The notes under the pieces are model-generated. The model worked only from the letters and a program-made list of their open reading frames with translations. It made no database searches and was not told the origin of the DNA. This document shows, in pieces, positions 1-16,642 of a stretch of 54,304 nucleotides of DNA. Numbering within the stretch: the first letter of the stretch is position 1; each line of letters starts with the position of its first letter. The stretch spans positions 1-54,304 of the forward strand of contig JAFDET010000002.1 of the NCBI GenBank assembly GCA_019310195.1, written 5' to 3'. The position numbers were made by a program, and so were the translations under genes. The DNA is from Deltaproteobacteria bacterium. GTDB taxonomy: Bacteria > Myxococcota_A > UBA9160 > JAFDET01.

Positions 1-288
1 GCCCAGCTCGGGCGCCAGCTGGCGCCACTCGGCCAGCCGGGCTGCCAGGGCGTCGCGCTCGGCCAGGCCGCGCGCCACCAGCTCCAGGGCGCGGTCCTCC
101 TCCAGGGTCAAGAGCACCGCGACCACGCGGCCGGCCGGGTCGGCGGTGACCCAGTCCACGCTGCCGGAAAGCCCCTCGATGCCTTCGGCCAGCACGCGCA
201 GGGGTCGGCCGCGGCGGCCCAGGGCGGCACGCAGGGCGCTGCGCAGGCGGTCCGGCGGCGGCGGCGGCGTCCAGCGCAGCTCGCTCAC
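1..288 (-). CDS. hypothetical protein, 5' part only (runs off the window start)
   Basis: GTG at 288 overlaps the stop of the upstream ORF (GTGA, 285-288). The frame stays open to the window edge (VSELRWTPPPPPDRL...VDWVTADPAGRVVAVLL). No family recognised. Confidence 0.4.
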   Translation of the reverse strand, partial: MSELRWTPPPPPDRLRSALRAALGRRGRPLRVLAEGIEGLSGSVDWVTADPAGRVVAVLLTLEEDRALELVARGLAERDALAARLAEWRQLAPELG

Positions 289-1037
289 GGCGAGTCCTCC
301 GGCGCCAGCAGGAGCCGGGCCACGTCGGCCAATGCCCGCCCGGCCGGCGACTGGGGACGAGTGAGGCCCACGGGCCGCCGCTCGACCAAGCTGCGGTACA
401 GGGCCAGGTCGTCGACCAGCAGTCCGAAGCTCGCGATCGGCTGCCCGGCGACCCGCTCCAGCGGCCCGGCGAGCCGCTCGAACGCGCGGCGCGCCTCCCG
501 GACCGAACCGGCTCCGTGGATCACCACACCCAGCCGGTCGTGGCCGGCCTCTAGCCAGCGACGCCCCTGGGCCTCGGCCCGCTCCAGCGCCGCCGGCTCC
601 GTGGCACAACACAGCAGTGCGCGGTCGGCGTGCTCCGCCGCGGCGGGCGTCGCTTCCGCGGCCAATCCCGCCAGCAGCAGGCCCGGGGCGTCGAGGGTGG
701 TGCGGTCGGCGAGCCGGGTTCGCGCCTGCCCCGTGGCTCGTACCCAGTCCTCTGCGTGGGCGCCGCTCACGCGGACGCCCAGGGTCGCGTCCTCCTCGGG
801 AACGCCCGCGTCGGGCGGGATCACGGCCTCGACGGCCGCCCCCGCGCGCCCCAGCTCCAGGGCCAGGTTCCAGACGATCGCCCCGCGCAGGAGGTCGGCA
901 GCCTCCATGGGCACGGCCAGCAGCTGCACGGGGCCCGGCTCCGGTCGCGACTCGGCCTGCGTCGGGGACGACGGCTCGGCGGCCGGGCCCAGGGCGGGAT
1001 CGAAGTAGTGGAGGACGTCGCCCAGGCCGCGTGCCAC
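285..1037 (-). CDS. MinD/FlhG/ParA-like protein with degenerate (missing) Walker A
   Basis: 250-aa ORF starting 3 nt after the ParA stop. Overall layout matches MinD/FlhG (..CCATEPAALERAEA.., ..GVVIHGAGSVREARRAFERL..SFGLLVDDLALYRSL..). The position of the KGGxGK[ST] loop reads LLAVPMEAADLLRG. Confidence 0.5.
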   Translation of the reverse strand: MARGLGDVLHYFDPALGPAAEPSSPTQAESRPEPGPVQLLAVPMEAADLLRGAIVWNLALELGRAGAAVEAVIPPDAGVPEEDATLGVRVSGAHAEDWVRATGQARTRLADRTTLDAPGLLLAGLAAEATPAAAEHADRALLCCATEPAALERAEAQGRRWLEAGHDRLGVVIHGAGSVREARRAFERLAGPLERVAGQPIASFGLLVDDLALYRSLVERRPVGLTRPQSPAGRALADVARLLLAPEDSP

Positions 1038-1040
1038 CGC

Positions 1041-2129
1041 CTACTGCACCACCAGCACGGAGTTGCGTTCGCCCACCGGCCCGGTCTCCACGCGCGGGTT
1101 GTCCGGGTCCTCGCGCCAGCGCCCGTCGACCACGTAGCGGTAGTGGTAGGTGCCCGGGCTCAGGCACAGGATCTTCCTCCACACCCGCGTCGAGCCGTCG
1201 CTCGAGACTTCGGATTGGACGTCCTTGTCCGGGATCCAACCGTTGAAGTCGCCGGCGATGCGCACGTCCTGGGCGCCGGGGTCACGAAACGAGACCACCA
1301 CCCGCCGTGGCTCGGTCTCCTCCGCTTCGCCGACGACCTGCAGCGTTGCCTTCAGCTCCGCCGCGGCGGCAGCCGCCACCTCGAAGGCCAGGGCGCCGTA
1401 GTCGGCGGTTCCGTTGGCGGACGGCGCATAGGACACCACGGGCACGCCCCGGCGCGCGGCCTCGCGCAGCTTTACGTTCTGGCGGATGACGGCGTCGAAG
1501 CACATGTCGCCGAAGAGCCCGCGGATCTCCGCCAGCGTCTCTCGCGCGAATCGCGTGCGTCCGTCGTACAGCGTCGGAAGAATGCGCACGTCGAGATCGT
1601 GGCCCAGCCGTTCGGTCAGGAGGGCGATGGTCTCCAGAAGCTTCTGGACGCCATGGATCGCGAAGTGGCTGGTCTCCAGGGGGACGATCACCTCCTGGGC
1701 CGCGCGCAGGGCGTTGAAGGTGAGTAGCCCGACGTTGGGCGGGCAGTCGATCAGGGCGAAGTCGTAGGGTCGGGCGAGCTGCCCCAGGGCGCCGACCAGA
1801 CGCTCGGTGCGAGCCTCCGCGTGCTCGGCGGATAGCTTCTGCTCCAGCGCCGAGAGCACGATGCCCGAGGGCGCCACCTCGATGCGCGGATCCACCTCGA
1901 CCAGGATCTCGTTCACCAGGGCCCGACCGTCTTCGTCGGCCAGCACCTCGTAGAGATTGGCTTCGGTCATCTCGGGATCGATTCCCAGGGCCAGGGTCGC
2001 GTGGGCCTGCGGATCCATGTCGATCACCAGGACCCGGGCCCCGTCGGCGGCGAGGCTCCCGGCCAGGTTCACGACCGTGGTGGTCTTCCCGCAACCCCCC
2101 TTCTGGTTGACGATGGCGATGGTGCGCAC
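1041..2129 (-). CDS. ParA/Soj-family ATPase fused to a C-terminal AMPK-beta/CBM48-type glycogen-binding domain
   Basis: GTG start at 2129, preceded by a G8 run. Deviant Walker A is IAIVNQKGGCGKTT, followed by VLVIDMDPQ and FALIDCPP. The C-terminal 90 aa (about 1044-1313) read VSFRDPGAQDVRIAGDFNGW...GTYHYRYVVDGRWREDPDNP, typical of AMPK1_CBM/CBM48. Confidence 0.85.
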   Translation of the reverse strand: MRTIAIVNQKGGCGKTTTVVNLAGSLAADGARVLVIDMDPQAHATLALGIDPEMTEANLYEVLADEDGRALVNEILVEVDPRIEVAPSGIVLSALEQKLSAEHAEARTERLVGALGQLARPYDFALIDCPPNVGLLTFNALRAAQEVIVPLETSHFAIHGVQKLLETIALLTERLGHDLDVRILPTLYDGRTRFARETLAEIRGLFGDMCFDAVIRQNVKLREAARRGVPVVSYAPSANGTADYGALAFEVAAAAAAELKATLQVVGEAEETEPRRVVVSFRDPGAQDVRIAGDFNGWIPDKDVQSEVSSDGSTRVWRKILCLSPGTYHYRYVVDGRWREDPDNPRVETGPVGERNSVLVVQ

Positions 2130-2256
2130 GGTTCCCCCCCCGCTGTTACTCCGACACCATGTTGGGTCGAAGTGGCCGCCTTCGGAACGAGTCCATGACC
2201 CGGTTGGGCCGGCGACGTCGGCGAGGCGGCCCGGGCGGAGCCCGGGGCAGGCTGCG

Positions 2257-2778
2257 CTAGGCGGAGTGTTCGGCTCGCGAGACGGACGGACGGCTGGCTT
2301 TCGCGCGTCGCGCACCCGAGGCGCGACGCCATGCCTCGACGTCGCGTTCGAATGCCGCGACCTCGAGCACCCACTCTTGTCCCGAAAGGGCTTCGAACAC
2401 CGTGCCCTCCCGGAACACCAGCACCACGTCACCCGTCGCCACGAGAACCAACTCCGCCAAGGGACGACGTACGGTCGGCAGGACCCGCATCAGCTGCGCG
2501 ATGCTCTTCCGGATCCGCTGGACCGAGACGCCGGCGTCGATAAGGCGTTTCGCGGCCTTCAAGGCCACGAGGTCCTCGAACGTGTAGCGGTGATGACCCC
2601 CCTTTGTGCGCGCCGAGGGACGGACCAGGTCGGTCTGCGCCCAGTACTGGAGCTGGCGCCGGGACACCCCGACGATCTCCACGACTTCGCCGGTACGGAA
2701 CAGATCCTGCGACAACGCATCCGCAGACTGCTGGCCGGAAGCCGATTGTGAGTGCCGTAGCGATGTACCAGGCGACAT
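2257..2778 (-). CDS. MerR-family transcriptional regulator
   Basis: N-terminal HTH FRTGEVVEIVGVSRRQLQYWAQTDLVRPSARTKGGHHRYTFEDLVALKAAKRLIDAGVS. AGGAGG Shine-Dalgarno upstream of the ATG at 2778. Confidence 0.85.
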   Translation of the reverse strand: MSPGTSLRHSQSASGQQSADALSQDLFRTGEVVEIVGVSRRQLQYWAQTDLVRPSARTKGGHHRYTFEDLVALKAAKRLIDAGVSVQRIRKSIAQLMRVLPTVRRPLAELVLVATGDVVLVFREGTVFEALSGQEWVLEVAAFERDVEAWRRASGARRAKASRPSVSRAEHSA

Positions 2779-2812
2779 CGCACCTCCTGTCCGCCCAAGG
2801 CGGCAGAACGAC

Positions 2813-2840
2813 GTTATACGCTGCCCCCGGTTCGAGTCAA
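2813..2840 (-). promoter_or_regulatory. sigma-70-type promoter candidate for the merR-parA operon
   Basis: The minus strand reads TTGACT, a 16-nt spacer, then TATAAC. It lies about 35 nt upstream of the merR ATG. Confidence 0.5.
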
Positions 2841-2916: not shown

Positions 2917-4107
2917 ATGGCCGAGAACGAATCAGAGCGCCAGCGGGGGAGCCGTGACGGCGGGCGGACGCTCGTGGAGGATGCCGGCGGGACCCGGCCC
3001 TTCATGCGGGGGATCCTGATCCACTCCCTGCTTTCCCGGGGTGTCGCCTTCGAGGACGCCTACGCGGTGGCCAACCAGGTTCGCGACCAGCTGCGGGGGC
3101 GCCAGATCTCCCGCGAGGAGCTGGGCAAGACGATTGCCGAGGTCTGCGACAAGGACGGGATCGTCGTAGAGGCGGCGCTGCACTCGATCTCGCCCGAGAT
3201 CACGGTCGTGTCCGGAGACGATGCTACGCCCTTCTCCAAGGGCATCCTCTCCCAATCCCTGCTGGCGGCGGCCCTGGAGCCCGCCGAGGCCTGGGACGTG
3301 GCGCGCGGCATCGAAGAGCGGCTGGTGAACGAGAGTCGCCGCAGCGTGGAGCGCGGGGACCTGCGGCGTATGGCGTACGAAGAGCTGCTGAGCGCCTCCC
3401 GCCAGCGGGCGGCCCGCCGCTACCTGGTGTGGCGGCGCTACCAGGATCCCGATCGTCCCGTGGTGATCCTGCTGGGCGGGGCCGCGGGGGTGGGAAAGAC
3501 CAGCCTGGCGCTCGAGGTCGCGCACCGTCTGGGCATCAGTCGCGTGATCTCGACCGACGCAATCCGACAGGTGATGCGCCTGATGCTGTCGCCGGAGCTG
3601 GTGCCGGCCATCCACAGCTCTTCGTACGACGCCTGGCGCGTGCCCGGCTTCGAGCCCACACCCGGCGGCGATCCGGTGGTGGAGGCATTCGCCGCCCAAG
3701 CGTCGGCGGTCTCCGTCGGGATCAAGGCGATGATCGACCGCGCCATCGACGAGAACGCGAGCCTGGTGCTGGACGGCGTCTCCCTGCTTCCCGGCCGCCT
3801 GGACCTGGAGGCCTACGCGGACCGCGCGCACGTGGTCTTCCTGATCGTCGCCACCTTCGACGGTGACGCGATTCGCGCCCGTTTCACGCGCCGCGCCGAA
3901 GGGGAGAAGGCCCGTCCGCCGCACCGCTACCTGGAGAACCTGGAGGCGATCCTGCGCATCCAAGATCACATCCTCGACCAGGCGGAGGCCAACGACGTGC
4001 CGATCGTAGAGAACCTCTCCTTCGACCGGTCCGTGCTCTCGATCATCCGGCAGGTGACGGAGACCCTGGCGAAGACGGACGGGTCCGACGTCACCGCGCT
4101 CCTCTAG
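2917..4107 (+). CDS. 2-phosphoglycerate kinase-like protein (two ATP-cone-like segments plus a P-loop kinase)
   Basis: ATP-cone-like repeats (RPFMRGILIHSLLSRGVAFEDAYAVA.. and TPFSKGILSQSLLAAALEPAEAWDVA..). P-loop VVILLGGAAGVGKTSLA. Layout resembles COG2074. Confidence 0.75.
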   Translation: MAENESERQRGSRDGGRTLVEDAGGTRPFMRGILIHSLLSRGVAFEDAYAVANQVRDQLRGRQISREELGKTIAEVCDKDGIVVEAALHSISPEITVVSGDDATPFSKGILSQSLLAAALEPAEAWDVARGIEERLVNESRRSVERGDLRRMAYEELLSASRQRAARRYLVWRRYQDPDRPVVILLGGAAGVGKTSLALEVAHRLGISRVISTDAIRQVMRLMLSPELVPAIHSSSYDAWRVPGFEPTPGGDPVVEAFAAQASAVSVGIKAMIDRAIDENASLVLDGVSLLPGRLDLEAYADRAHVVFLIVATFDGDAIRARFTRRAEGEKARPPHRYLENLEAILRIQDHILDQAEANDVPIVENLSFDRSVLSIIRQVTETLAKTDGSDVTALL

Positions 4108-4114
4108 TGGCCGA

Positions 4115-4951
4115 GTGGCCGAGCGGGACGGCGCGCCGGCGCGCCACCGCCGGTCACGCTTCGCGCGCCTGTCCGGCGCCGCGCTCTCCAGCGCCCTGGC
4201 CTTGTCGCTGGGCTGCGGGACCCTGTCGATCCCCGAGGAGCGGGCGCTGGGCGAGCAGGTCAACCGGGAGGTCCGGGCAGAAGCGCGCCTGGTGAAGGAC
4301 CGCGTGGTCTGGGACTACGTGCGCGAGATCGGGCACCGCATCGTGGCGGCCTCCGGATCCCAACCCTTCACCTACTCCTTCTACGTCGTCGAGGACGACG
4401 CCATCAACGCCTTCGCCCTGCCCGGAGGCTACATCTACATCCACTCCGAGACCCTCCTCGCCGCCCGCAACGTGGCCGAGCTGGCCGGCGTGATCGCCCA
4501 CGAGGTGGGCCACGTGGCGCTCCGTCACGTGGCCAGGAACTACCGCCGGCAGCAGGGCGTGGGCTCGCTGTATCGGATCGGCGTCTACGCGGCCTCGCTG
4601 CTGGGCGGCGGGCTGGCCGGGAGTGCCGCCAACCTGGGTGGCGGGCTGGCGGCCGCCGCCTACCTGAACTCCTACGGCCGCGACGCCGAGCGCGAGGCCG
4701 ATGCCTTCGCCGTCGAGGTGATGCCGCGGGCCGGCTACGATCCGGAGGGTCTGGTGACCTTCTTCAAGACCATGCTCAGCGAGTCGGGCGGGCAGCCGCC
4801 GGCCTGGCTCTCCAGCCATCCCACGACCGTCGAGCGGATCGAGAAGACGCAGCGCATGATCGAGGAGAGCCCGCTGCCGGTGGGGCTCCGCAGCCACGAC
4901 GACCGGCTCCCGCAGATCCAGCGGCGCATCCGGCGACTCCGAACACGCTAG
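4115..4951 (+). CDS. M48-family zinc metallopeptidase, lipoprotein
   Basis: HExxH motif (IAHEVGHVALRH). Lipobox LALSLGC near the N-terminus. Confidence 0.85.
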   Translation: MAERDGAPARHRRSRFARLSGAALSSALALSLGCGTLSIPEERALGEQVNREVRAEARLVKDRVVWDYVREIGHRIVAASGSQPFTYSFYVVEDDAINAFALPGGYIYIHSETLLAARNVAELAGVIAHEVGHVALRHVARNYRRQQGVGSLYRIGVYAASLLGGGLAGSAANLGGGLAAAAYLNSYGRDAEREADAFAVEVMPRAGYDPEGLVTFFKTMLSESGGQPPAWLSSHPTTVERIEKTQRMIEESPLPVGLRSHDDRLPQIQRRIRRLRTR

Positions 4952-4959
4952 GAGAATCC

Positions 4960-6372
4960 ATGCCCTCGAACCCGCCCCCCCATCGCACCTTGGGCGAGCT
5001 GCGCGCCGCCGGCTGGCAGCCTCGCACCCTGCGCGAAGAGCTGCGAGCCAATCTGCTGGCCCGGCTGCGCAGCGGGGAGCCCCTCTTCCAGGGGATCCTG
5101 GGCTTCGACGACAGCGTGTTGCCCGCGGTGGAGAACGCCGTGCTGTGCGGTCACGACCTGATCTTCCTGGGCGAACGCGGGCAGGCCAAGTCGCGCATGA
5201 TCCGCTCGCTGGTGGGCCTGCTGGACGAGTGGATTCCGGCGGTCGCGGGCAGCGAGATCTGCGACGACCCGTTCCAGCCGGTCTCGGCCGGCGCGCGGCA
5301 GACCGTGGCTGCCGAGGGAGACGCCACGCCCATCGAGTGGGTGGCCCGGGACGCCCGCTACGGCGAGAAGCTGGCCACGCCCGACACCTCGGTGGCCGAC
5401 CTGATCGGCGACGTGGATCCGATCAAGGTGGCCGAGGGGCGCACCCTGTCCGACGAGCTCACCATCCACTTCGGCCTGCTGCCGCGCACCCACCGCGGGA
5501 TCTTCTGCATCAACGAGCTTCCCGACTTGACCGAGAAGGTGCAGGTCGCGCTCTTCAATATCCTCGAGGAGCGGGACTTCCAGGTGAAGGGCTACCGGGT
5601 GCGGCTGCCCCTGGACGTGCTGGTGGTGGCCAGCGCCAACCCGGAGGACTACACCAGCCGCGGGCGCATCATCACGCCTCTCAAGGATCGCTACGCGGCC
5701 CAGATCCGGACCCACTACCCGGCGACCCGCGACCTGGAGCTGGCGATCGCGTTGCAGGAAGCGAAGCCGCCCCACGTAGAGGGCGTCGAGGTGTTGGTTC
5801 CACGTTTCCTGCAGGAAGTGGTGGCGGAGACCACGCTCCAGGCGCGACGCAGCCCCGACGTGAGCCAGACCTCGGGCGTGTCGGTGCGCGTGACCATCGC
5901 AAACTACGAGACCCTTGTGGCCAACGCCCTGCGGCGCGCCCTGGCCACCGGAGAGAGCCAGGCCGTGCCGCGCGTCTCGGACCTGCCGTTCCTGGACGCC
6001 TCGACCCAGGGCAAGCTGGAGCTCGAGTACGCCGGCGCGGACAAGGACGAGGCCGACGTCATCGCCGAGCTGCGGAGCCGCGCGCTGCGCGCCGTCTTCG
6101 ACGAGTGCGGGCCGGGTGAGGGCGTGGCGTCGGTGGTGCAGGCCTTCGAGCAGGGCTGGAACGTGGAGGTCTCCGCCAGCATGCCCTCGGCCGAGTACCT
6201 GGAAGGGCTCGATGCGATCCCCGGTCTGCGCGAGGGCGCCGCCGCCCTGGCGGGAGGCGACTCGCCGGCGCAGCTGGCCAGCGCCATCGAGTTCCTGCTG
6301 GAGGGGCTTCACCTCTCGAACCGGCTCAACAAGGTGGAGCGGGACGGGACGGTGGTGTACGGCCAGCCGTGA
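4960..6372 (+). CDS. ChlI/Mg-chelatase-type AAA+ ATPase (partner of the VWA protein)
   Basis: AGGAG Shine-Dalgarno. Walker A GERGQAKS. Walker B region reads GIFCINELPD (Asn where Asp is expected). SANPED sensor region. Confidence 0.8.
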   Translation: MPSNPPPHRTLGELRAAGWQPRTLREELRANLLARLRSGEPLFQGILGFDDSVLPAVENAVLCGHDLIFLGERGQAKSRMIRSLVGLLDEWIPAVAGSEICDDPFQPVSAGARQTVAAEGDATPIEWVARDARYGEKLATPDTSVADLIGDVDPIKVAEGRTLSDELTIHFGLLPRTHRGIFCINELPDLTEKVQVALFNILEERDFQVKGYRVRLPLDVLVVASANPEDYTSRGRIITPLKDRYAAQIRTHYPATRDLELAIALQEAKPPHVEGVEVLVPRFLQEVVAETTLQARRSPDVSQTSGVSVRVTIANYETLVANALRRALATGESQAVPRVSDLPFLDASTQGKLELEYAGADKDEADVIAELRSRALRAVFDECGPGEGVASVVQAFEQGWNVEVSASMPSAEYLEGLDAIPGLREGAAALAGGDSPAQLASAIEFLLEGLHLSNRLNKVERDGTVVYGQP

Positions 6373-8003
6373 AGGTCTACCGCTACAGCCGCTGGGACGG
6401 GAGCCAGGCCGAGTTCCGCATGGATGCGGAGCAGGCGCTCGACGCCCTGTCCGAGCTCCTGATGGAAGGGCTCGACGTCAGCGAGGCGCTCGAGTGGATG
6501 CGCCAGGCGGGCTTCGAGCTCGGCGGCAACGAGATGCGGGTCATGGGCGTGGACGAGCTGGTCCGCGAGCTGCGCGAGGAGGCTCGCTCGCTCTACGAGC
6601 GCTATCGCATGGACGGCGCCAGCGACGAGCTGCGGCGGCGCTTCGAAGAGATCCTGGACCGGGAGCAGCGCGCGCTGGAACGCGCCCATGGTCATGAGTC
6701 CCAGCGCCTGAACCAGTTCCTCGAGCGCCGGCACCACGATCAGGCGGAGCCAGCCGGACTGGCTGACGCCATCGAGCGTTTCCGCGACCACTCCTTCGAG
6801 GACAGCGAGGCGGAGGACGCGTACCGCGAGCTGCTGGAGGAGCTGGAGCGCCTGCGCGCGCTGGAGCGCTTCCAACAGCAGCAGGGGGAGCGCTTCCGCG
6901 GCTCGGAGCAGGCGGACTACGAGACCGCCCAGGAGATTCGCGAGCGCATCCAAAGCTTGGAGCAGATGGCGCAGGATCTGGCCGATGGAAACTTCTCGGA
7001 GATCTCGCCCGAGGCGCTGCAGGAGCTGCTGGACGCCGGCGCCGTGCAGTCGCTGATCTTCCTGCGCGACCTGAGGTCGTCTCTCGAGAACGCCGGGTAT
7101 CTACGCGAAGGACAAGAGGAACTCACGCCCAAGGCCATCCGGCGGCTGGGCGCGTCGGCGCTGGCCCAGGTGTACGACGCGCTGCGCAAGGGCCGGCCCG
7201 GAACCCACGAGAGCCGCAGTGCCGGGGTCGGCCTGCCACGCCCGGACGAGACCCGCTCCTGGCAGTTCGGCGACTCGCTGGACATCGCGGTGGTGCGCAC
7301 CCTGATCGAGAGCGTGCTGCGCCAGGCGCGCGAGAACCCGGGCTCCCGGCTCACGACGCCGATCCGGCTGGAGGTCGACGACTTCCGCGTCCACGAGATG
7401 GACTACACGACCCAGACCACCACCGTGCTGCTGCTCGACATGAGCTGGTCCATGTCCTGGGCGGGGCGCTTCCCGGCGGCCAAGCGCGTGGCCCTGGCCC
7501 TGGACCACCTGATCCGCAGCCGCTACCCGCGCGATCACTTCTTCGTGGTGGGCTTCTACACGCGCGCGGTGGAGCTCTCGACCCGGGATCTGCCCGAGGC
7601 GAGCTGGAACATGGGCGATCCGTTCACCAACCTGCAGGAAGGGCTGATGGTCGCGGAGCGGCTGATCGCGAAGCATCCTTCGCCCAACCCCCAGATCCTG
7701 GTCATCACCGACGGCCAGCCCACGGCCTATTTCGTGGACAAGGAGCTGCGCGTCGAGTGGCCCATGGGTTTCGGCGGCATCTCGCCGCGGGCCGCCGAGG
7801 AGACGCTCAAGCAGGTGCGCCGGGTCACGCGCCGGGGCGCCACCATCAACACCTTCATGCTGGACGATGCGCCGGAGCTGGTCGGCTTCGTGGAGCGCAT
7901 GACCGCCATCAACAAGGGGCGCGCCTTCTTCACGCGGCCGGGCCAGCTAGGCTCCTACCTGATGGTCGACTATCTCTCGCGACGCCGGAAGCGCTGGAAG
8001 TGA
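6369..8003 (+). CDS. VWA domain-containing protein
   Basis: GTGA overlap with the AAA+ gene. C-terminal VWA domain with MIDAS-like VLLLDMSWSMSW. Long acidic coiled N-terminal half. Confidence 0.8.
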   Translation: MKVYRYSRWDGSQAEFRMDAEQALDALSELLMEGLDVSEALEWMRQAGFELGGNEMRVMGVDELVRELREEARSLYERYRMDGASDELRRRFEEILDREQRALERAHGHESQRLNQFLERRHHDQAEPAGLADAIERFRDHSFEDSEAEDAYRELLEELERLRALERFQQQQGERFRGSEQADYETAQEIRERIQSLEQMAQDLADGNFSEISPEALQELLDAGAVQSLIFLRDLRSSLENAGYLREGQEELTPKAIRRLGASALAQVYDALRKGRPGTHESRSAGVGLPRPDETRSWQFGDSLDIAVVRTLIESVLRQARENPGSRLTTPIRLEVDDFRVHEMDYTTQTTTVLLLDMSWSMSWAGRFPAAKRVALALDHLIRSRYPRDHFFVVGFYTRAVELSTRDLPEASWNMGDPFTNLQEGLMVAERLIAKHPSPNPQILVITDGQPTAYFVDKELRVEWPMGFGGISPRAAEETLKQVRRVTRRGATINTFMLDDAPELVGFVERMTAINKGRAFFTRPGQLGSYLMVDYLSRRRKRWK

Positions 8004-12187: not shown

Positions 12188-12196
12188 TGATAGAAT
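12188..12196 (+). promoter_or_regulatory. extended -10 promoter candidate upstream of the kinase-cyclase gene
   Basis: TGaTAGAAT lies 28 nt upstream of the GTG at 12224. No clear -35 element. Confidence 0.3.
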
Positions 12197-12223
12197 GCGC
12201 CCTTCGTCGGGATCGGAGGCCTC

Positions 12224-15200
12224 GTGAACTGTCCCTCGTGCGATCGTCCGAATGCCGGGGATGCGGCCTTCTGCAACGGCTGTGGGAGTCGGTTGGCCCG
12301 GACCTGCGCGGGCTGCAGTCGGGAGAACCCGCCGGACGCGTCCTTCTGCGCCGGCTGCGGGCAGAAGCTCGCCGGGACCTCGGACGCGGCGCCCGCCGAG
12401 TCCGCGACGGCGCCGCCCGCTGCCGCGTCCGCGCCCACCAGCGCCTCGGGCCTCTCTTTCGCGAGAGGCCGCTACGTGGTGCAGCGCATGCTGGGCGAGG
12501 GCGGCAAGAAGCGCGTCTACCTGGCCCACGACGGCAGCCTGGGGCGCGACGTGGCGGTGTCGGTGCTCAAGACGGAGGGGCTCGACGAGTCGGGTCAGGT
12601 GCGGGTGCGCCACGAGGCCGAGGCCATGGGGCGCCTCGGGGATCACCCCAACGTGGTCACCGTCTTCGACATCGGCGACGAGGACGGAGCGGTCTTCCTG
12701 GTGAGCGAGTACATGGCCGGTGGCGACGTCGAGGGAATGCTCGCCGGCGCCGACGGGGGGCGCCTGGCCTTCCGCGACGCGATCCGCATCGGCGCCGAGA
12801 TCTGCCATGCACTGGAGCACGCACACCGCAACGACATCGTGCATCGCGACCTGAAGCCGGGAAACATCTGGCTGCGCCAGGACGGCAGCGCGGCGCTGGG
12901 GGACTTCGGACTGGCGCTCTTCGAGCAGCGCACACGCATCACCCAGGAGGGCATGATGGTGGGCACGGTGGCCTACATGCCGCCCGAGCAGGCGCTGGGC
13001 CGCAAGCCCGACGCGCGCAGCGACCTCTATGCCCTGGGCGCCACCCTCTACGAGATGGTGGCGGGCAGCCCGCCCTTCGCCGGCGACGACGCGGTGGCGA
13101 TCATCTCCCAGCACATCAACACCCCGCCGGTGGCGCCCTCCTGGCACAACGCCGACGTCCCCAAGCCGCTGGACGATCTGATCCTGTCGTTGCTGTCCAA
13201 GGATCCCGCCCAGCGCCCCGCCGACGCGGCGACGGCCCGCGGTGCGCTGGAAGCGATCCAGAACGTCTCCAGCGTGACGGCTGCGCCGGCCGCCGGCGAC
13301 GTCAACCCGCTGGACCGGCTCGCCAGCGGCGTCTTCGTGGGCCGTGAGCGCGAGGTGCAAGAGCTGCGCGCCGGCGCCGATGCCGCGCTCTCCGGCCAGG
13401 GGCGCATCCTGTTGCTGGTGGGCGAGCCGGGCATCGGGAAGACCCGCACCTCCGAGGAGCTGGCCACCTACGCCAGCCTGCGCGGCGCCCAGGTGCTCTG
13501 GGGGCGCTGCTACGAGGGCGAGGGCGCGCCCACCTACTGGCCCTGGGTGCAGCTCGTCCGCAGCTACGTGCGCGAGCGCGATCCGGCGGCGCTGCTCTCG
13601 GAAATGGGCGGCGGCGCGCCGGTCATCGCGGACGTGGTCTCCGAGGTGCGCGAGCGGCTGCCGGGACTCCAGCCCGCGGCGCCGCTGGCGGCCGACGAGG
13701 CGCGCTTCCGCCTCTTCGACAGCCTCACCAACTTCTTCAAGAACGCGGCTCGGGAGCAACCGCTGGTCCTGATCCTGGACGACCTGCACTGGGCCGACAA
13801 GCCGTCGCTCCTGCTGATGCAGTTCCTGGCGCGGGAGCTGGCGGGAACGCGCATCCTGCTGATCGGCACCTACCGCGATGTGGAGCTGGGCCGGCGTCAC
13901 CCCCTGGCCGAGACCCTGGCGGATCTGGCGCAGCTGCAGCTCTCCACCCGGGTGCTGCTGCGCGGCCTCGAGGAGGCCGACGTCTCGCGCTTCATCGAGC
14001 TCAGCGCCGGGAAGTCCGCGGCCGAGTCCCTGGTCTCGGCGGTCTACCGCGAGACCGAGGGCAACCCGTTCTTCGTGAACGAGGTGGTGCGCCTGCTGGC
14101 CTCCGAGGGACGCCTGGACGATCCCAAGACCTCCGGCACGTGGAGCGTGGAGATTCCCCAGGGCATCCGCGAGGCCGTCGGTCGGCGCCTCAACCAGCTC
14201 AGCGAGGAGTGCAACGATGCGCTCAGCGTGGCGTCGGTGATCGGCCGCGAGTTCGACCTCTCGCTGCTCGAGCCGCTGGCGGGCCTGGACGCAGACCGCC
14301 TGGGCGAGGTTCTGGACGAGGCGCTCGGCGCCCGGGTGATCCAGGAGATGCCCGAATCGCCGGGCCGCTACCGCTTCTCCCACGCGCTTGTGCGCGAGAC
14401 CCTCCAGGACGAGCTCAACACAACCCGCCGCGTGCGCCTGCACCGGAAGATCGGCGAGGTGCTGGAGTCGCTGCACGCCGATCGCGAGGGCTCGCAGCTG
14501 GCGGCGCTGGCGTATCACTTTGCCGAGGGTGCCCACGCGGGTGGCGACGTCGGCAAGGCAGTGGAGTACGCCACCCGGGCCGGACACCGCGCAACCCAGC
14601 TCATGGCCCACGAGGACGCCATCCCTCACTACGAGCGCGCCCTCCAGATGCTGGAGCTGCAAGGCGACGGCGATGACCAGCAGCACTGCGACCTGTTGAT
14701 CGCCCTGGGCTGGGCCCAGCACTACGCCGGCGACGTGGAGCAGGCGCTGGCCGTCCTGGAGCGCGCGATTCCCATCGCCCGCCGGCTGGGTGACACGCGC
14801 CGCTTCGCCCTGGTTGCGGCGAGCTTCGGCTTCGCCGAGTTCGCGCGAAACCTGGGTGAGCCGCACGCCGGCGCCGTGGTCCTGTTGGAGGAGGCCCGCG
14901 AAAAGCTGGGCGATGACGACTGCGTGCACCGTGTGCAGGTGCTGACTCAGCTCGGCAACCAGATGGCCCTGGGCGAGACCGCGGACCAGGGCTGCGCCTA
15001 CTACGAGGAGGCGCTGGACGTGGCGCGGCGCGTGGGCGACCCGAGTCATCTTCTGGAGGCGTGCTTCGCGATGATCTTCGCCCTCTGGCGCCCCGAGGAC
15101 CTGGAGCGTCGCGGCGCCGTCGCCGACGAGCTGCTCGCGCTTGCGGAGGCCTCGGGGGAGACCGACAAGACCATCCTGGCGCGAAACCAGCGCTTCAATC

Positions 15201-16642
15201 ACTTCTTCGTGATGGGAGACATGCAGGCCTGCCGGCGCGAGCAGGCGGCGGTGGAGGCGCTGGTGCCGCGCACCCAGAACGCGCGCGCCATCTACTGGTA
15301 CCACCTCCACAACTCCAGCCTGAAGCTCGTCGCGGGCGAACTGGACGAGGGCGAGCGGCTCGCGGGCTTCGCCCTGGCCTACGGCACGCGGGTCTGGGCC
15401 GACGTGGCGCTCCAGATGTACGGCGCCAGCATCGCTTTCATCCGCTTCTTCCAGGGCCGCCTGGAGGAGCTGGCTGCGGTGCTCGACGCGGGCATGCAGC
15501 AGCATCCGCAGCCCGTCTGGCGCGCAGCCGCCGCCTGGGCCCACGCCGAGCTGGGGCACGCCGAGATCGCCCGCGAGCAGCTCGACTTCTTCCTGGCCGA
15601 CGACTTCGCGGCCATGCCCCCCGATGGCAACTGGCCCGCCGGAATCAGCCTGCTGGCCCAGGCCGCCCATCGCCTGGGCGCGACGGATGCGGCCCAGCGT
15701 CTGTACGAGCTGCTGCTTCCGTACGCCGAGCTGCAGATCACGGCCGGCGCTGCCGCCTCCTCGCGCGGTCCCGGGCACTACGGCCTGGGCCTGCTCGCCC
15801 GGATCCTCGGCCGCGTGGACGACGCGGTTGGACACCTGGAGCGTGCCCTGGAGCTGAGCGCGGAGTGGGGCCTGCGCCCGTTCCAGATCGTGGGCAGCCT
15901 GGCGTTGGCAGAGATCCTCGTCGAGCGGCAGGGCGAAGGCGATCAGGACCGGGCCCTCCAGCTCCTGAACGACGCCATGGATGCCGCCCGGGACATGGGC
16001 TCTGCCCACTTCGTGGAGCGCGCGCTGGCCACGAAGCTGGAGGTGCAGGGCATCGATGCCTCCCAGACCCACCGCTCCATCTACTCGGTGGCGCACTCCG
16101 TCCAGTCCGGCCGTCCGGACTTCGGCAAGCACGCGGCGGCGGACGGCACCGTGACGCTCATGTTCAGCGACATGCAGGGCTTCACCTCCATGACCGAGCG
16201 GCTGGGCGACGAGGCCGCGCACCGGGTCATCCAGACCCACAACCGCATCCTGCGCGAGCAGGTGGCGGCCCACGAGGGGCGTGAGGTCGACTCCCAGGGC
16301 GACGGCTTCCTGCTGGCCTTCCCGTCGGCGCGCGACGGTGTGCGCGCCGCGGTGGCGATGCAGCGCGCCTTCGCCGCCTATCGCGAGCAGGGCTCCGTCG
16401 AGCCGATTCGCATCCGCATCGGCCTCCACACCGGCCAGGCGATCCGGGACGCCGACAAGTTCTTCGGACGCACGGTGATCCTGGCCTGTCGCATCGCCGA
16501 CCAGGCCCAGGCCGGAGAGATTCTGGTCTCCGAGGACGTGCAGGCTGCCGTCGGCGACGGCTTCCCCCTCGGCGACTCCCGCGAGCTGACCCTGAAGGGC
16601 TTCTCGGGGACGCACCGGGCTCACCCGATCGGATGGGCCTAG
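12224..16642 (+). CDS. multidomain signalling protein: double Zn-ribbon / Ser-Thr kinase / STAND-type AAA ATPase / TPR-like region / class III nucleotidyl cyclase
   Basis: GGAGG Shine-Dalgarno. CPSCDRP..CNGCG..CAGC..CAGCG ribbons. Kinase motifs HRDLKPGNIW and APE-like MPPEQ. P-loop LLLVGEPGIGKTR with LVLILDDLHWAD. C-terminal cyclase VTLMFSDMQGF...GDGFLLAF...IRIGLHTG...GRTVILACRIAD. Confidence 0.9.
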   Translation: MNCPSCDRPNAGDAAFCNGCGSRLARTCAGCSRENPPDASFCAGCGQKLAGTSDAAPAESATAPPAAASAPTSASGLSFARGRYVVQRMLGEGGKKRVYLAHDGSLGRDVAVSVLKTEGLDESGQVRVRHEAEAMGRLGDHPNVVTVFDIGDEDGAVFLVSEYMAGGDVEGMLAGADGGRLAFRDAIRIGAEICHALEHAHRNDIVHRDLKPGNIWLRQDGSAALGDFGLALFEQRTRITQEGMMVGTVAYMPPEQALGRKPDARSDLYALGATLYEMVAGSPPFAGDDAVAIISQHINTPPVAPSWHNADVPKPLDDLILSLLSKDPAQRPADAATARGALEAIQNVSSVTAAPAAGDVNPLDRLASGVFVGREREVQELRAGADAALSGQGRILLLVGEPGIGKTRTSEELATYASLRGAQVLWGRCYEGEGAPTYWPWVQLVRSYVRERDPAALLSEMGGGAPVIADVVSEVRERLPGLQPAAPLAADEARFRLFDSLTNFFKNAAREQPLVLILDDLHWADKPSLLLMQFLARELAGTRILLIGTYRDVELGRRHPLAETLADLAQLQLSTRVLLRGLEEADVSRFIELSAGKSAAESLVSAVYRETEGNPFFVNEVVRLLASEGRLDDPKTSGTWSVEIPQGIREAVGRRLNQLSEECNDALSVASVIGREFDLSLLEPLAGLDADRLGEVLDEALGARVIQEMPESPGRYRFSHALVRETLQDELNTTRRVRLHRKIGEVLESLHADREGSQLAALAYHFAEGAHAGGDVGKAVEYATRAGHRATQLMAHEDAIPHYERALQMLELQGDGDDQQHCDLLIALGWAQHYAGDVEQALAVLERAIPIARRLGDTRRFALVAASFGFAEFARNLGEPHAGAVVLLEEAREKLGDDDCVHRVQVLTQLGNQMALGETADQGCAYYEEALDVARRVGDPSHLLEACFAMIFALWRPEDLERRGAVADELLALAEASGETDKTILARNQRFNHFFVMGDMQACRREQAAVEALVPRTQNARAIYWYHLHNSSLKLVAGELDEGERLAGFALAYGTRVWADVALQMYGASIAFIRFFQGRLEELAAVLDAGMQQHPQPVWRAAAAWAHAELGHAEIAREQLDFFLADDFAAMPPDGNWPAGISLLAQAAHRLGATDAAQRLYELLLPYAELQITAGAAASSRGPGHYGLGLLARILGRVDDAVGHLERALELSAEWGLRPFQIVGSLALAEILVERQGEGDQDRALQLLNDAMDAARDMGSAHFVERALATKLEVQGIDASQTHRSIYSVAHSVQSGRPDFGKHAAADGTVTLMFSDMQGFTSMTERLGDEAAHRVIQTHNRILREQVAAHEGREVDSQGDGFLLAFPSARDGVRAAVAMQRAFAAYREQGSVEPIRIRIGLHTGQAIRDADKFFGRTVILACRIADQAQAGEILVSEDVQAAVGDGFPLGDSRELTLKGFSGTHRAHPIGWA

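Follow-up and report, generated by a model that had tools for sequence, protein, structure and literature searches.

A window of 54,304 nucleotides (nt; about 71% G+C) from contig JAFDET010000002.1 carries at its left end four minus-strand genes arranged head to tail, encoding a MerR-type protein, a ParA-type ATPase of 362 amino acids (aa) that ends in a CBM48-like carbohydrate-binding module (CBM) and is called ParA-CBM here, a P-loop-less protein of MinD/FlhG fold (gene 3) and a further putative partner protein (gene 4). We put at about even the chance that this is a dedicated ParA-type system linking cytoplasmic alpha-glucan (glycogen) granules to the nucleoid, which would tether or position them. 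The predicted catalytic, DNA-binding and glucan-contact residues of ParA-CBM are intact, and it is from such domain content that we infer DNA binding, ATPase stimulation, the glycogen cargo and the positioning outcome. Positioning or tethering of glycogen or another alpha-glucan had already been suggested in the initial annotation of this DNA. With its cargo and activity as predictions, that suggestion is supported by a match to the AMPK1_CBM family, the absence of a characterised counterpart and the conservation of the neighbouring genes.

Under this proposal, ParA-CBM would, like Soj/ParA proteins, form ATP-sandwich dimers with a non-specific affinity for chromosomal DNA, and the CBM48 module on its flexible linker would grip a glycogen particle, so that granules would be tethered to the nucleoid and distributed over its length. 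ATP hydrolysis would be triggered by the N-terminal peptide of gene 3, perhaps with help from gene 4, and would take the ATPase off the DNA, making the tethers transient. Gene 4, a non-catalytic PD-(D/E)xK fold with a C-terminal peptide of its own, would serve as a second partner or form a scaffold with gene 3, and the MerR-type protein would regulate the operon. The expected outcome would be granules that are distributed and inherited by both daughter cells, and not expelled to the poles.

The ATPase domain of ParA-CBM is the most readily classified part of the system. The protein matched the Pfam families AAA_31 (167 bits) and CbiA (82 bits) and reached no NCBIfam equivalog cutoff; in a search of the PDB, the nearest solved relative of the domain was Myxococcus xanthus ParA (8ray, 165 bits), followed by the Soj proteins of T. 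thermophilus and H. pylori. The KGGCGKTT, A' and B motifs described in the initial annotation are present as the deviant Walker A K10-G-G-C-G-K15-T-T, the Walker A' residues D37/D39 and the Walker B residue D128. In a family alignment of 200 relatives, drawn from 120 metagenomic clusters and 79 genome loci, D37 and D128 occur in every member and K10, K15 and D39 each in 199, and the cysteine of the KGGCGKT motif is invariant. K220 aligns with R238 of M. xanthus ParA, the position being lysine in 185 of the 200 relatives and arginine in 14; the R238E variant of the M. xanthus protein loses non-specific DNA binding (PMC12462528). The C-terminus of ParA-CBM is the CBM, with no amphipathic membrane-targeting helix there. 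On these features ParA-CBM would fall within the nucleoid-binding ParA branch as opposed to the membrane-associated MinD branch, and it is predicted to bind DNA. No other ParA-like gene lies within the window.

Mean identity across the family is 73% in the ATPase domain, 22% in the linker (residues 253-275), which also varies in length, and 68% in the CBM; the contrast between the linker and the module indicates that the CBM is under selection. One relative (P0008, 396 aa) has a tandem duplication of EESAAAPEALAG in the linker between ATPase and CBM, a repeat which suggests that linker length is free to vary.

The C-terminal 90 aa, initially read as an AMPK-beta/CBM48 glycogen-binding domain, passed the gathering score of the Pfam family AMPK1_CBM (PF16561), with 45.7 bits over residues 278-361 against a cutoff of 26.8. 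Among solved structures, the module is closest to the glycogen-binding modules of AMPK beta1 and beta2 (E-values of about 1e-6), after which come pullulanase, LSF1, alpha-amylase and SEX4. The residues which we take to be the sugar contacts of AMPK beta1 from the 1z0n work (W100/K126/W133/L146/N150) align with W298/R331/W338/V352/N356 of ParA-CBM. W298, R331 and W338, together with S357, are invariant in the 200 members, and N356 is found in 167 of them. When the module alone was searched against 1.84 billion representative proteins, 6592 relatives were returned; outside the ParA family, the nearest of these are proteins that carry CBM48 in 2-18 tandem copies and enzymes that have GH57, GH13 or glucodextranase domains. 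Since ParA-CBM has no signal peptide, any glucan that it binds would be cytoplasmic, that is, glycogen or a related alpha-glucan, and the module is predicted to bind glycogen. A module 62% identical to this CBM was also observed at the C-terminus of a 394-aa protein (P0357) that carries an ANF_receptor/Peripla_BP_6 domain; the protein may be an assembly chimera or another setting in which this module occurs as a fusion.

Gene 3 has no match in Pfam or NCBIfam. The label of 'P-loop-less MinD-like' given to it initially is nevertheless well founded, with scores far beyond chance: a phmmer search of the PDB found FlhG (4rz2, E=6e-7), and an AlphaFold2 model with a predicted local distance difference test score (pLDDT) of 87 was matched by Foldseek to FlhG (4rz3, E=1.7e-11, template modelling (TM) score 0.68). 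At the Walker A site the protein reads P-M-E-A-A-D-L-L-R-G. The pattern P-x-x-x-x-D-L-[LV]-R is kept in all homologues and the GK[ST] motif is missing from 44 of 44. With the P-loop replaced throughout the family, gene 3 is best described as a pseudo-ATPase and not as a MinD/FlhG member in the enzymatic sense. Of the two 'ParA/MinD-type' genes proposed at the outset, the second therefore keeps its MinD-type fold but loses its standing as an ATPase, and it is no close paralogue of its neighbour. An origin of gene 3 as a recent duplicate of the adjoining ParA gene was considered and rejected: an hhalign comparison of the two families was not significant (probability 0.5%), and FlhG/MinD proteins are closer to gene 3.

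The best-conserved part of gene 3 is not the fold but its first 14 residues, M-A-R-x-L-G-D-V-L-H-x-F-x-P, in which L5, D7, V8 and H10 are invariant and R3, L9, F12 and P14 are at least 90% conserved. This peptide is disordered in the AlphaFold2 model (pLDDT <52) and is followed by a variable Pro/Ala-rich linker. In M. xanthus ParB, a ParA-binding motif, L11-x-R13-x-L15-x-x-L18-I19, has been experimentally mapped inside the disordered N-terminal region (PMC12462528). M1, R3, L5, V8 and L9 of gene 3 have the same spacing (hydrophobic, x, R, x, L, x, x, hydrophobic, hydrophobic). On the ATPase side, V133, L135, F138, L170 and L175 of ParA-CBM are hydrophobic at five of the six aligned pocket positions of M. 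xanthus ParA. Partner proteins of ParA/MinD ATPases generally act via N-terminal peptides (PMC10241942). Given this precedent and a disordered peptide in register with that of ParB, gene 3 is read as the activating partner, and by its sequence it is probably the activator of the ParA-CBM ATPase. The initial annotation had envisaged an adaptor built into the ATPase in place of a separate one; since gene 3 bears a ParB-type ParA-binding peptide, a separate partner appears to exist alongside the built-in CBM.

Gene 4 leaves the window, and its full length was reconstructed from an orthologue about 94-95% identical (L002:7842-8396, ~184 aa). It too has no Pfam or NCBIfam match. An AlphaFold2 model of a protein 93% identical to it (P0240; pLDDT 88) was matched by Foldseek first to NucS (2vld, E=2e-4, TM score 0.41-0.45) and then to EndoMS, Shedu, R2 endonuclease and SfsA, a moderate match on which a restriction-endonuclease-like PD-(D/E)xK fold is predicted. 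E35 and D45 are conserved in the family, and the third strand reads G-R-V-V-x-V-L, without a conserved acidic-x-Lys. The fold is acidic, with an isoelectric point (pI) of about 5.4 across the family, and the C-terminus consists of a disordered linker and then a conserved F-R-T-G-L-x-D-A-D-L peptide. An active nuclease or DNA-binding protein was considered and found unlikely, with the (D/E)xK motif missing and the fold acidic; judged from sequence, gene 4 is probably not a nuclease. In two loci (L015:7112-7639 and L076:7102-7602) the gene 3 peptide, MARxLGDVLHYF, is fused straight to a gene-4-like domain, and these proteins have neither the MinD-like body nor the C-terminal FRTGL peptide. Such fusions indicate that the two proteins are functionally linked.

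The distribution of the genes was surveyed in a scan of one genome per GTDB species, in which at least 531 stretches encode relatives; the locus counts given here refer to the best 80. All 80 of these relatives are full length and come from metagenome-assembled genomes of uncultured Myxococcota, which places the cassette in at least 80 species-level genomes. The reading proposed initially leaned on the neighbours being conserved with ParA-CBM, and they are: the order 2-phosphoglycerate-kinase-like (2PGK-like; divergent), MerR, ParA-CBM, gene 3 and gene 4 was found in about 65 of the 80 loci, and it persists at loci whose gene 3 and gene 4 have no more than 30-40% identity. The MerR gene is absent from about 11 loci, and in a few gene 4 is missing while gene 3 is shorter and has diverged. 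A CBM-less version of the cassette was looked for beside the most distant gene-4 homologues located on long contigs, two in number, and none was found; both adjoin a ParA with AMPK1_CBM.

The 2PGK-like gene is the most constant neighbour, present at every locus with sufficient upstream flank. Its product contains an ATP-cone (36.6 bits) and scored 312 bits against NCBIfam PRK04220, below the cutoff of 343; to our knowledge the bacterial members of this family are uncharacterised. In 54 of the 80 loci the opposite strand carries a phosphoglucomutase/phosphomannomutase (PGM) gene, at a distance of 1.5-4 kb downstream of gene 4. Its proximity hints at a link to glucose-1-phosphate metabolism but is no more than suggestive, the gene being part of a block that is syntenic in any case. 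The tight coupling of the three genes ParA-CBM, gene 3 and gene 4 is the stronger signal.

Several points weigh against a system for glycogen granules. Every step of the model rests on computation. Synteny in the lineage extends over the entire block from MoxR to PGM, so that conservation of the flanks, including the 2PGK-like and PGM genes, is weak evidence of shared function, and no glycogen gene was found among the ten large window genes scanned. CBM48-like modules also serve as regulatory or protein-contact domains, as in AMPK. At the proposed peptide-binding pocket the sixth residue differs, V116 of M. xanthus ParA aligning with Q97 of ParA-CBM. Furthermore, in the classical diffusion-ratchet the activator is on the cargo, whereas here the ATPase itself would hold it; the cargo being held by the ATPase rather than by a partner, the system may be a dynamic tether rather than a ratchet. 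A place on the granule would be speculative for gene 3 and gene 4 alike, and a simple tether, not a motor, may be all that is present.

Among the alternatives, it is unlikely, yet worth serious consideration, that the CBM48 module reports the glycogen state of the cell and so controls where or when the ParA protein acts, the true target being bound by gene 3 and gene 4. Candidate targets would be a protein assembly, the division site (compare PomZ and MipZ) or the replication machinery (compare Soj-DnaA). The existence of a separate partner pair with interaction peptides fits such a regulator, as elsewhere it is the partner that binds the cargo; the homologous module is regulatory in AMPK, and the constant neighbour, an ATP-cone kinase, suggests energy sensing. 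Neither gene 3 nor gene 4, however, has a cargo-binding domain recognisable in Pfam or NCBIfam, the acidic fold of gene 4 looks catalytically dead, and a long flexible linker with strictly conserved sugar contacts suits a tether at least equally well.

Less probable again is a CBM48 fold with a non-glucan or protein ligand, in an operon that positions a cargo unrelated to glycogen. The Pfam score and PDB E-values of the module are moderate, substitutions (K to R and L to V) are seen at two of the five positions that align with AMPK contacts, N356 varies in 33 of the 200 members, and the copy of the module on P0357 accompanies a periplasmic-binding-protein-like domain. Against this, both aromatic platform residues and the arginine are invariant, the nearest relatives with a catalytic partner are all alpha-glucan enzymes, and the PDB matches are all glucan-binding modules.

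The MerR-type protein raises another possibility. It matched MerR_1 with 61 bits (cutoff 21.6), the helix-turn-helix (HTH) occupying residues 27-95, and its best relatives in the PDB are the N-terminal domain of CarH, GlnR/TnrA and RacA. Over 60 orthologues, conservation is at least 85% in a core of about 125 aa, which exceeds that of the ATPase. The protein has a very conserved C-terminal region at residues 96-150, ELVLVATGDVVLVFxxGxAFEAVSGQEWVFEV, which has no family match and is beta-rich as judged by its sequence. It ends in a basic tail (pI 10.7). MerR-family regulators typically have a long dimerisation coiled-coil, a C-terminal effector site and a promoter spacer of 19-20 bp; the spacer of the promoter read by eye at the MerR gene is 16 nt. 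This protein probably regulates the operon.

RacA has a MerR-type HTH, and the MerR-type protein could by analogy be the site-specific DNA partner of a ParA that segregates or anchors a chromosomal region, the CBM being accessory. The extreme conservation of the MerR core, its being nearer to RacA, GlnR and TnrA than to metal-sensing MerRs, and the Soj-like ATPase would all agree with this. We nonetheless regard such DNA partition as quite improbable: the MerR gene is missing at loci that retain ParA-CBM, no cassette gene has a ParB/Srx domain in Pfam or NCBIfam, there are no repeated parS-like sites around the operon, and the setting is chromosomal housekeeping and not a plasmid. The activator motif, moreover, sits on gene 3 and not on the MerR-type protein, which is taken to lack such a peptide because its N-terminal tail is not conserved. 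That the MinD-like protein and the ATPase instead form a FleN/FlhG-type module modulating the MerR-type regulator or the downstream extracytoplasmic function (ECF) sigma factor is scarcely credible, since, for all that gene 3 is structurally closest to FlhG and to FleN, the anti-activator of FleQ, and that an ECF sigma gene follows gene 4 in 66 of the 80 loci, gene 3 has lost nucleotide binding, the conserved CBM48 would be left unexplained and the ECF gene lies within a longer, wholly syntenic block.

The coordinates of the operon and its associated features are collected in Table 1. The gene order described in the initial annotation, with its gaps of 127 and 3 nt and a fourth reading frame at a GTGA overlap, agrees with our reading of the sequence, as do the other facts that it records. 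The 3-nt gap and the overlap imply that ParA-CBM, gene 3 and gene 4 are co-expressed. The spacer between the MerR and ParA-CBM genes ranges from 16 to about 350 nt across orthologous loci. Neither this spacer nor the promoter region in the window has an Rfam match, a convincing terminator or a meaningful inverted repeat. The putative promoter was not listed by a consensus promoter scan, because the scan demands T at the last -10 position and the hexamer ends in C.

Table 1. Features of the cassette and its associated genes (window coordinates unless a locus is named)
Feature	Position	Strand	Description
Putative promoter-like element, 5' of MerR gene	2813-2840	-	TTGACT 2840-2835, 16 nt, TATAAC 2818-2813; near-consensus sigma-70, read by eye
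MerR-type winged-HTH gene	2257-2778	-	173 aa, ATG start; Pfam MerR_1
Spacer between MerR and ParA-CBM genes	2130-2256	-	127 nt; G-rich ribosome-binding site directly 5' of GTG
ParA-CBM gene	1041-2129	-	362 aa; GTG start at 2129, GGGGGGGAACC just upstream
Soj/ParA-type ATPase domain of ParA-CBM	1374-2129	-	residues 1-252
Ala-rich variable linker of ParA-CBM	1305-1373	-	residues 253-275
CBM48/AMPK-beta-type module and stop codon	1041-1304	-	residues 276-362
Gene 3	285-1037	-	250 aa, GTG start; 3-nt gap after ParA-CBM gene
Gene 3 N-terminal peptide	996-1037	-	MARGLGDVLHYFDP; proposed ParA-binding, ATPase-activating motif
Gene 3 remainder	285-995	-	variable Pro/Ala-rich linker (residues 15-35), then P-loop-less MinD/FlhG-fold domain (residues 36-250)
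Gene 4, first 96 codons	1-288	-	GTG at 288; GTGA overlap (288-285) with gene 3 TGA; leaves the window
2PGK-like gene	2917-4107	+	ATP-cone and P-loop kinase; divergent from operon
PGM gene (other loci)	L002:12018-13076, L082:11609-12967, L083:11701-13056	-	

Beyond the 2PGK-like gene, the window encodes a MoxR-like AAA_5 ATPase and then a VWA-domain protein (4960-6372 and 6120-8003, plus strand), with an M48 peptidase just before them (4115-4951); these genes are part of the block whose synteny with the cassette is seen in 34-43 of the 80 genomes. Further along the plus strand (12194-16642) is a gene for a 1482-aa signalling protein with a double zinc ribbon, a Ser/Thr kinase domain, AAA_16 (STAND-like), TPR repeats and, at the C-terminus, an adenylate/guanylate cyclase domain. 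About 8 kb downstream of the cassette, several genomes share a conserved pair of adjoining ArsA/Get3-like ATPase genes (L001:17866-20033, L082:15126-16702 and L083:15256-16711). A defence system was rejected as an identity for the locus, PADLOC having given weak generic hits (mad1, 31 bits on the HTH; mad8, 18 bits on the P-loop) and the locus being in a long syntenic housekeeping block.

ParA/MinD ATPases organise chromosomes, plasmids, carboxysomes, chemoreceptor arrays, flagella and the divisome. We know of no such ATPase for glycogen, the most widespread bacterial carbon store. No characterised counterpart, and no paper linking ParA to glycogen or CBM48, was found in the literature or the curated family libraries, and the architecture was likewise not assigned in the literature or NCBIfam to any characterised family with another role, which the initial annotation had seen as a threat to its reading. 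Glycogen that is left uncontrolled can do harm: in E. coli csrA mutants, it accumulates at the old poles and excludes the chromosome (PMC4836754). It is tempting, although we hold it to be somewhat short of an even chance, to see here the first machinery dedicated to segregating or positioning a polysaccharide storage granule, a ParA with a fused CBM48 that is cycled by a pseudo-ATPase with a borrowed ParB activation peptide and is universal in a large uncultured Myxococcota lineage. If this is true, polysaccharide would be a new class of ParA cargo, attachment within the ATPase itself a new mode of holding cargo, and a pseudo-ATPase would use a ParB-like peptide to act as the activator. Although the hosts are uncultured, purified proteins allow a direct test of the hypothesis, and the ATPase, peptide tag and CBM modules could interest synthetic biologists making minimal positioning systems.

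Of the known systems, ParABS, as represented by M. xanthus ParA-ParB (8ray; PMC12462528), offers the nearest family for the ATPase domain, and shares with the cassette the deviant Walker A with its signature lysine, the DNA-binding position and a disordered partner peptide matching the ParB motif. Unlike ParABS, the cassette has no ParB/Srx CTPase and no parS, its partner is a P-loop-less MinD fold, and its ATPase has a C-terminal carbohydrate-binding module and a KGGCGKT motif with an invariant cysteine. In known ParA/MinD systems the link to the cargo is made via a separate partner protein (PMC10241942). McdA/McdB and other systems for non-DNA cargo use a nucleoid ParA-type ATPase to distribute a bulky cytoplasmic body and a partner that works through an N-terminal peptide (PMC10241942), a scheme which the cassette would share by proposal. 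There, however, it is the partner that binds the cargo, whereas here the ATPase includes the putative cargo-binding module; a polysaccharide granule would take the place of the protein shell, and the cassette has no McdB homologue.

PomXYZ, also from the Myxococcota, is comparable in its two-activator scheme (PMC13170346; PMC7993993). Nucleoid-bound PomZ of M. xanthus has two activators, one acting by an N-terminal peptide and the other by a short helix that lies at the C-terminus, within a disordered region (PMC13170346); the peptides at the N-terminus of gene 3 and the C-terminus of gene 4 form a parallel arrangement. In sequence and fold, though, neither gene 3 nor gene 4 resembles PomX or PomY, PomZ has no CBM, and the target of PomXYZ is FtsZ placement. 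FlhG/FleN/MinD proteins share the fold of gene 3, and FlhG too has a short regulatory N-terminal peptide; in gene 3, by contrast, the Walker A is lost in all members, there is no C-terminal membrane-targeting helix beyond the fold, and the context is neither flagellar nor that of the divisome. The AMPK beta CBM and the CBM48 of plant SEX4 and LSF1 are the best solved relatives of the ParA-CBM module, with the aromatic sugar-platform residues conserved, but here the module, whose binding is predicted, is carried on a ParA ATPase and not on a kinase scaffold or a phosphatase. Thus the parts are known and their combination is new: a ParA with a built-in carbohydrate module, a pseudo-ATPase whose peptide is of ParB type, and an apparently inactive nuclease fold that has another peptide.

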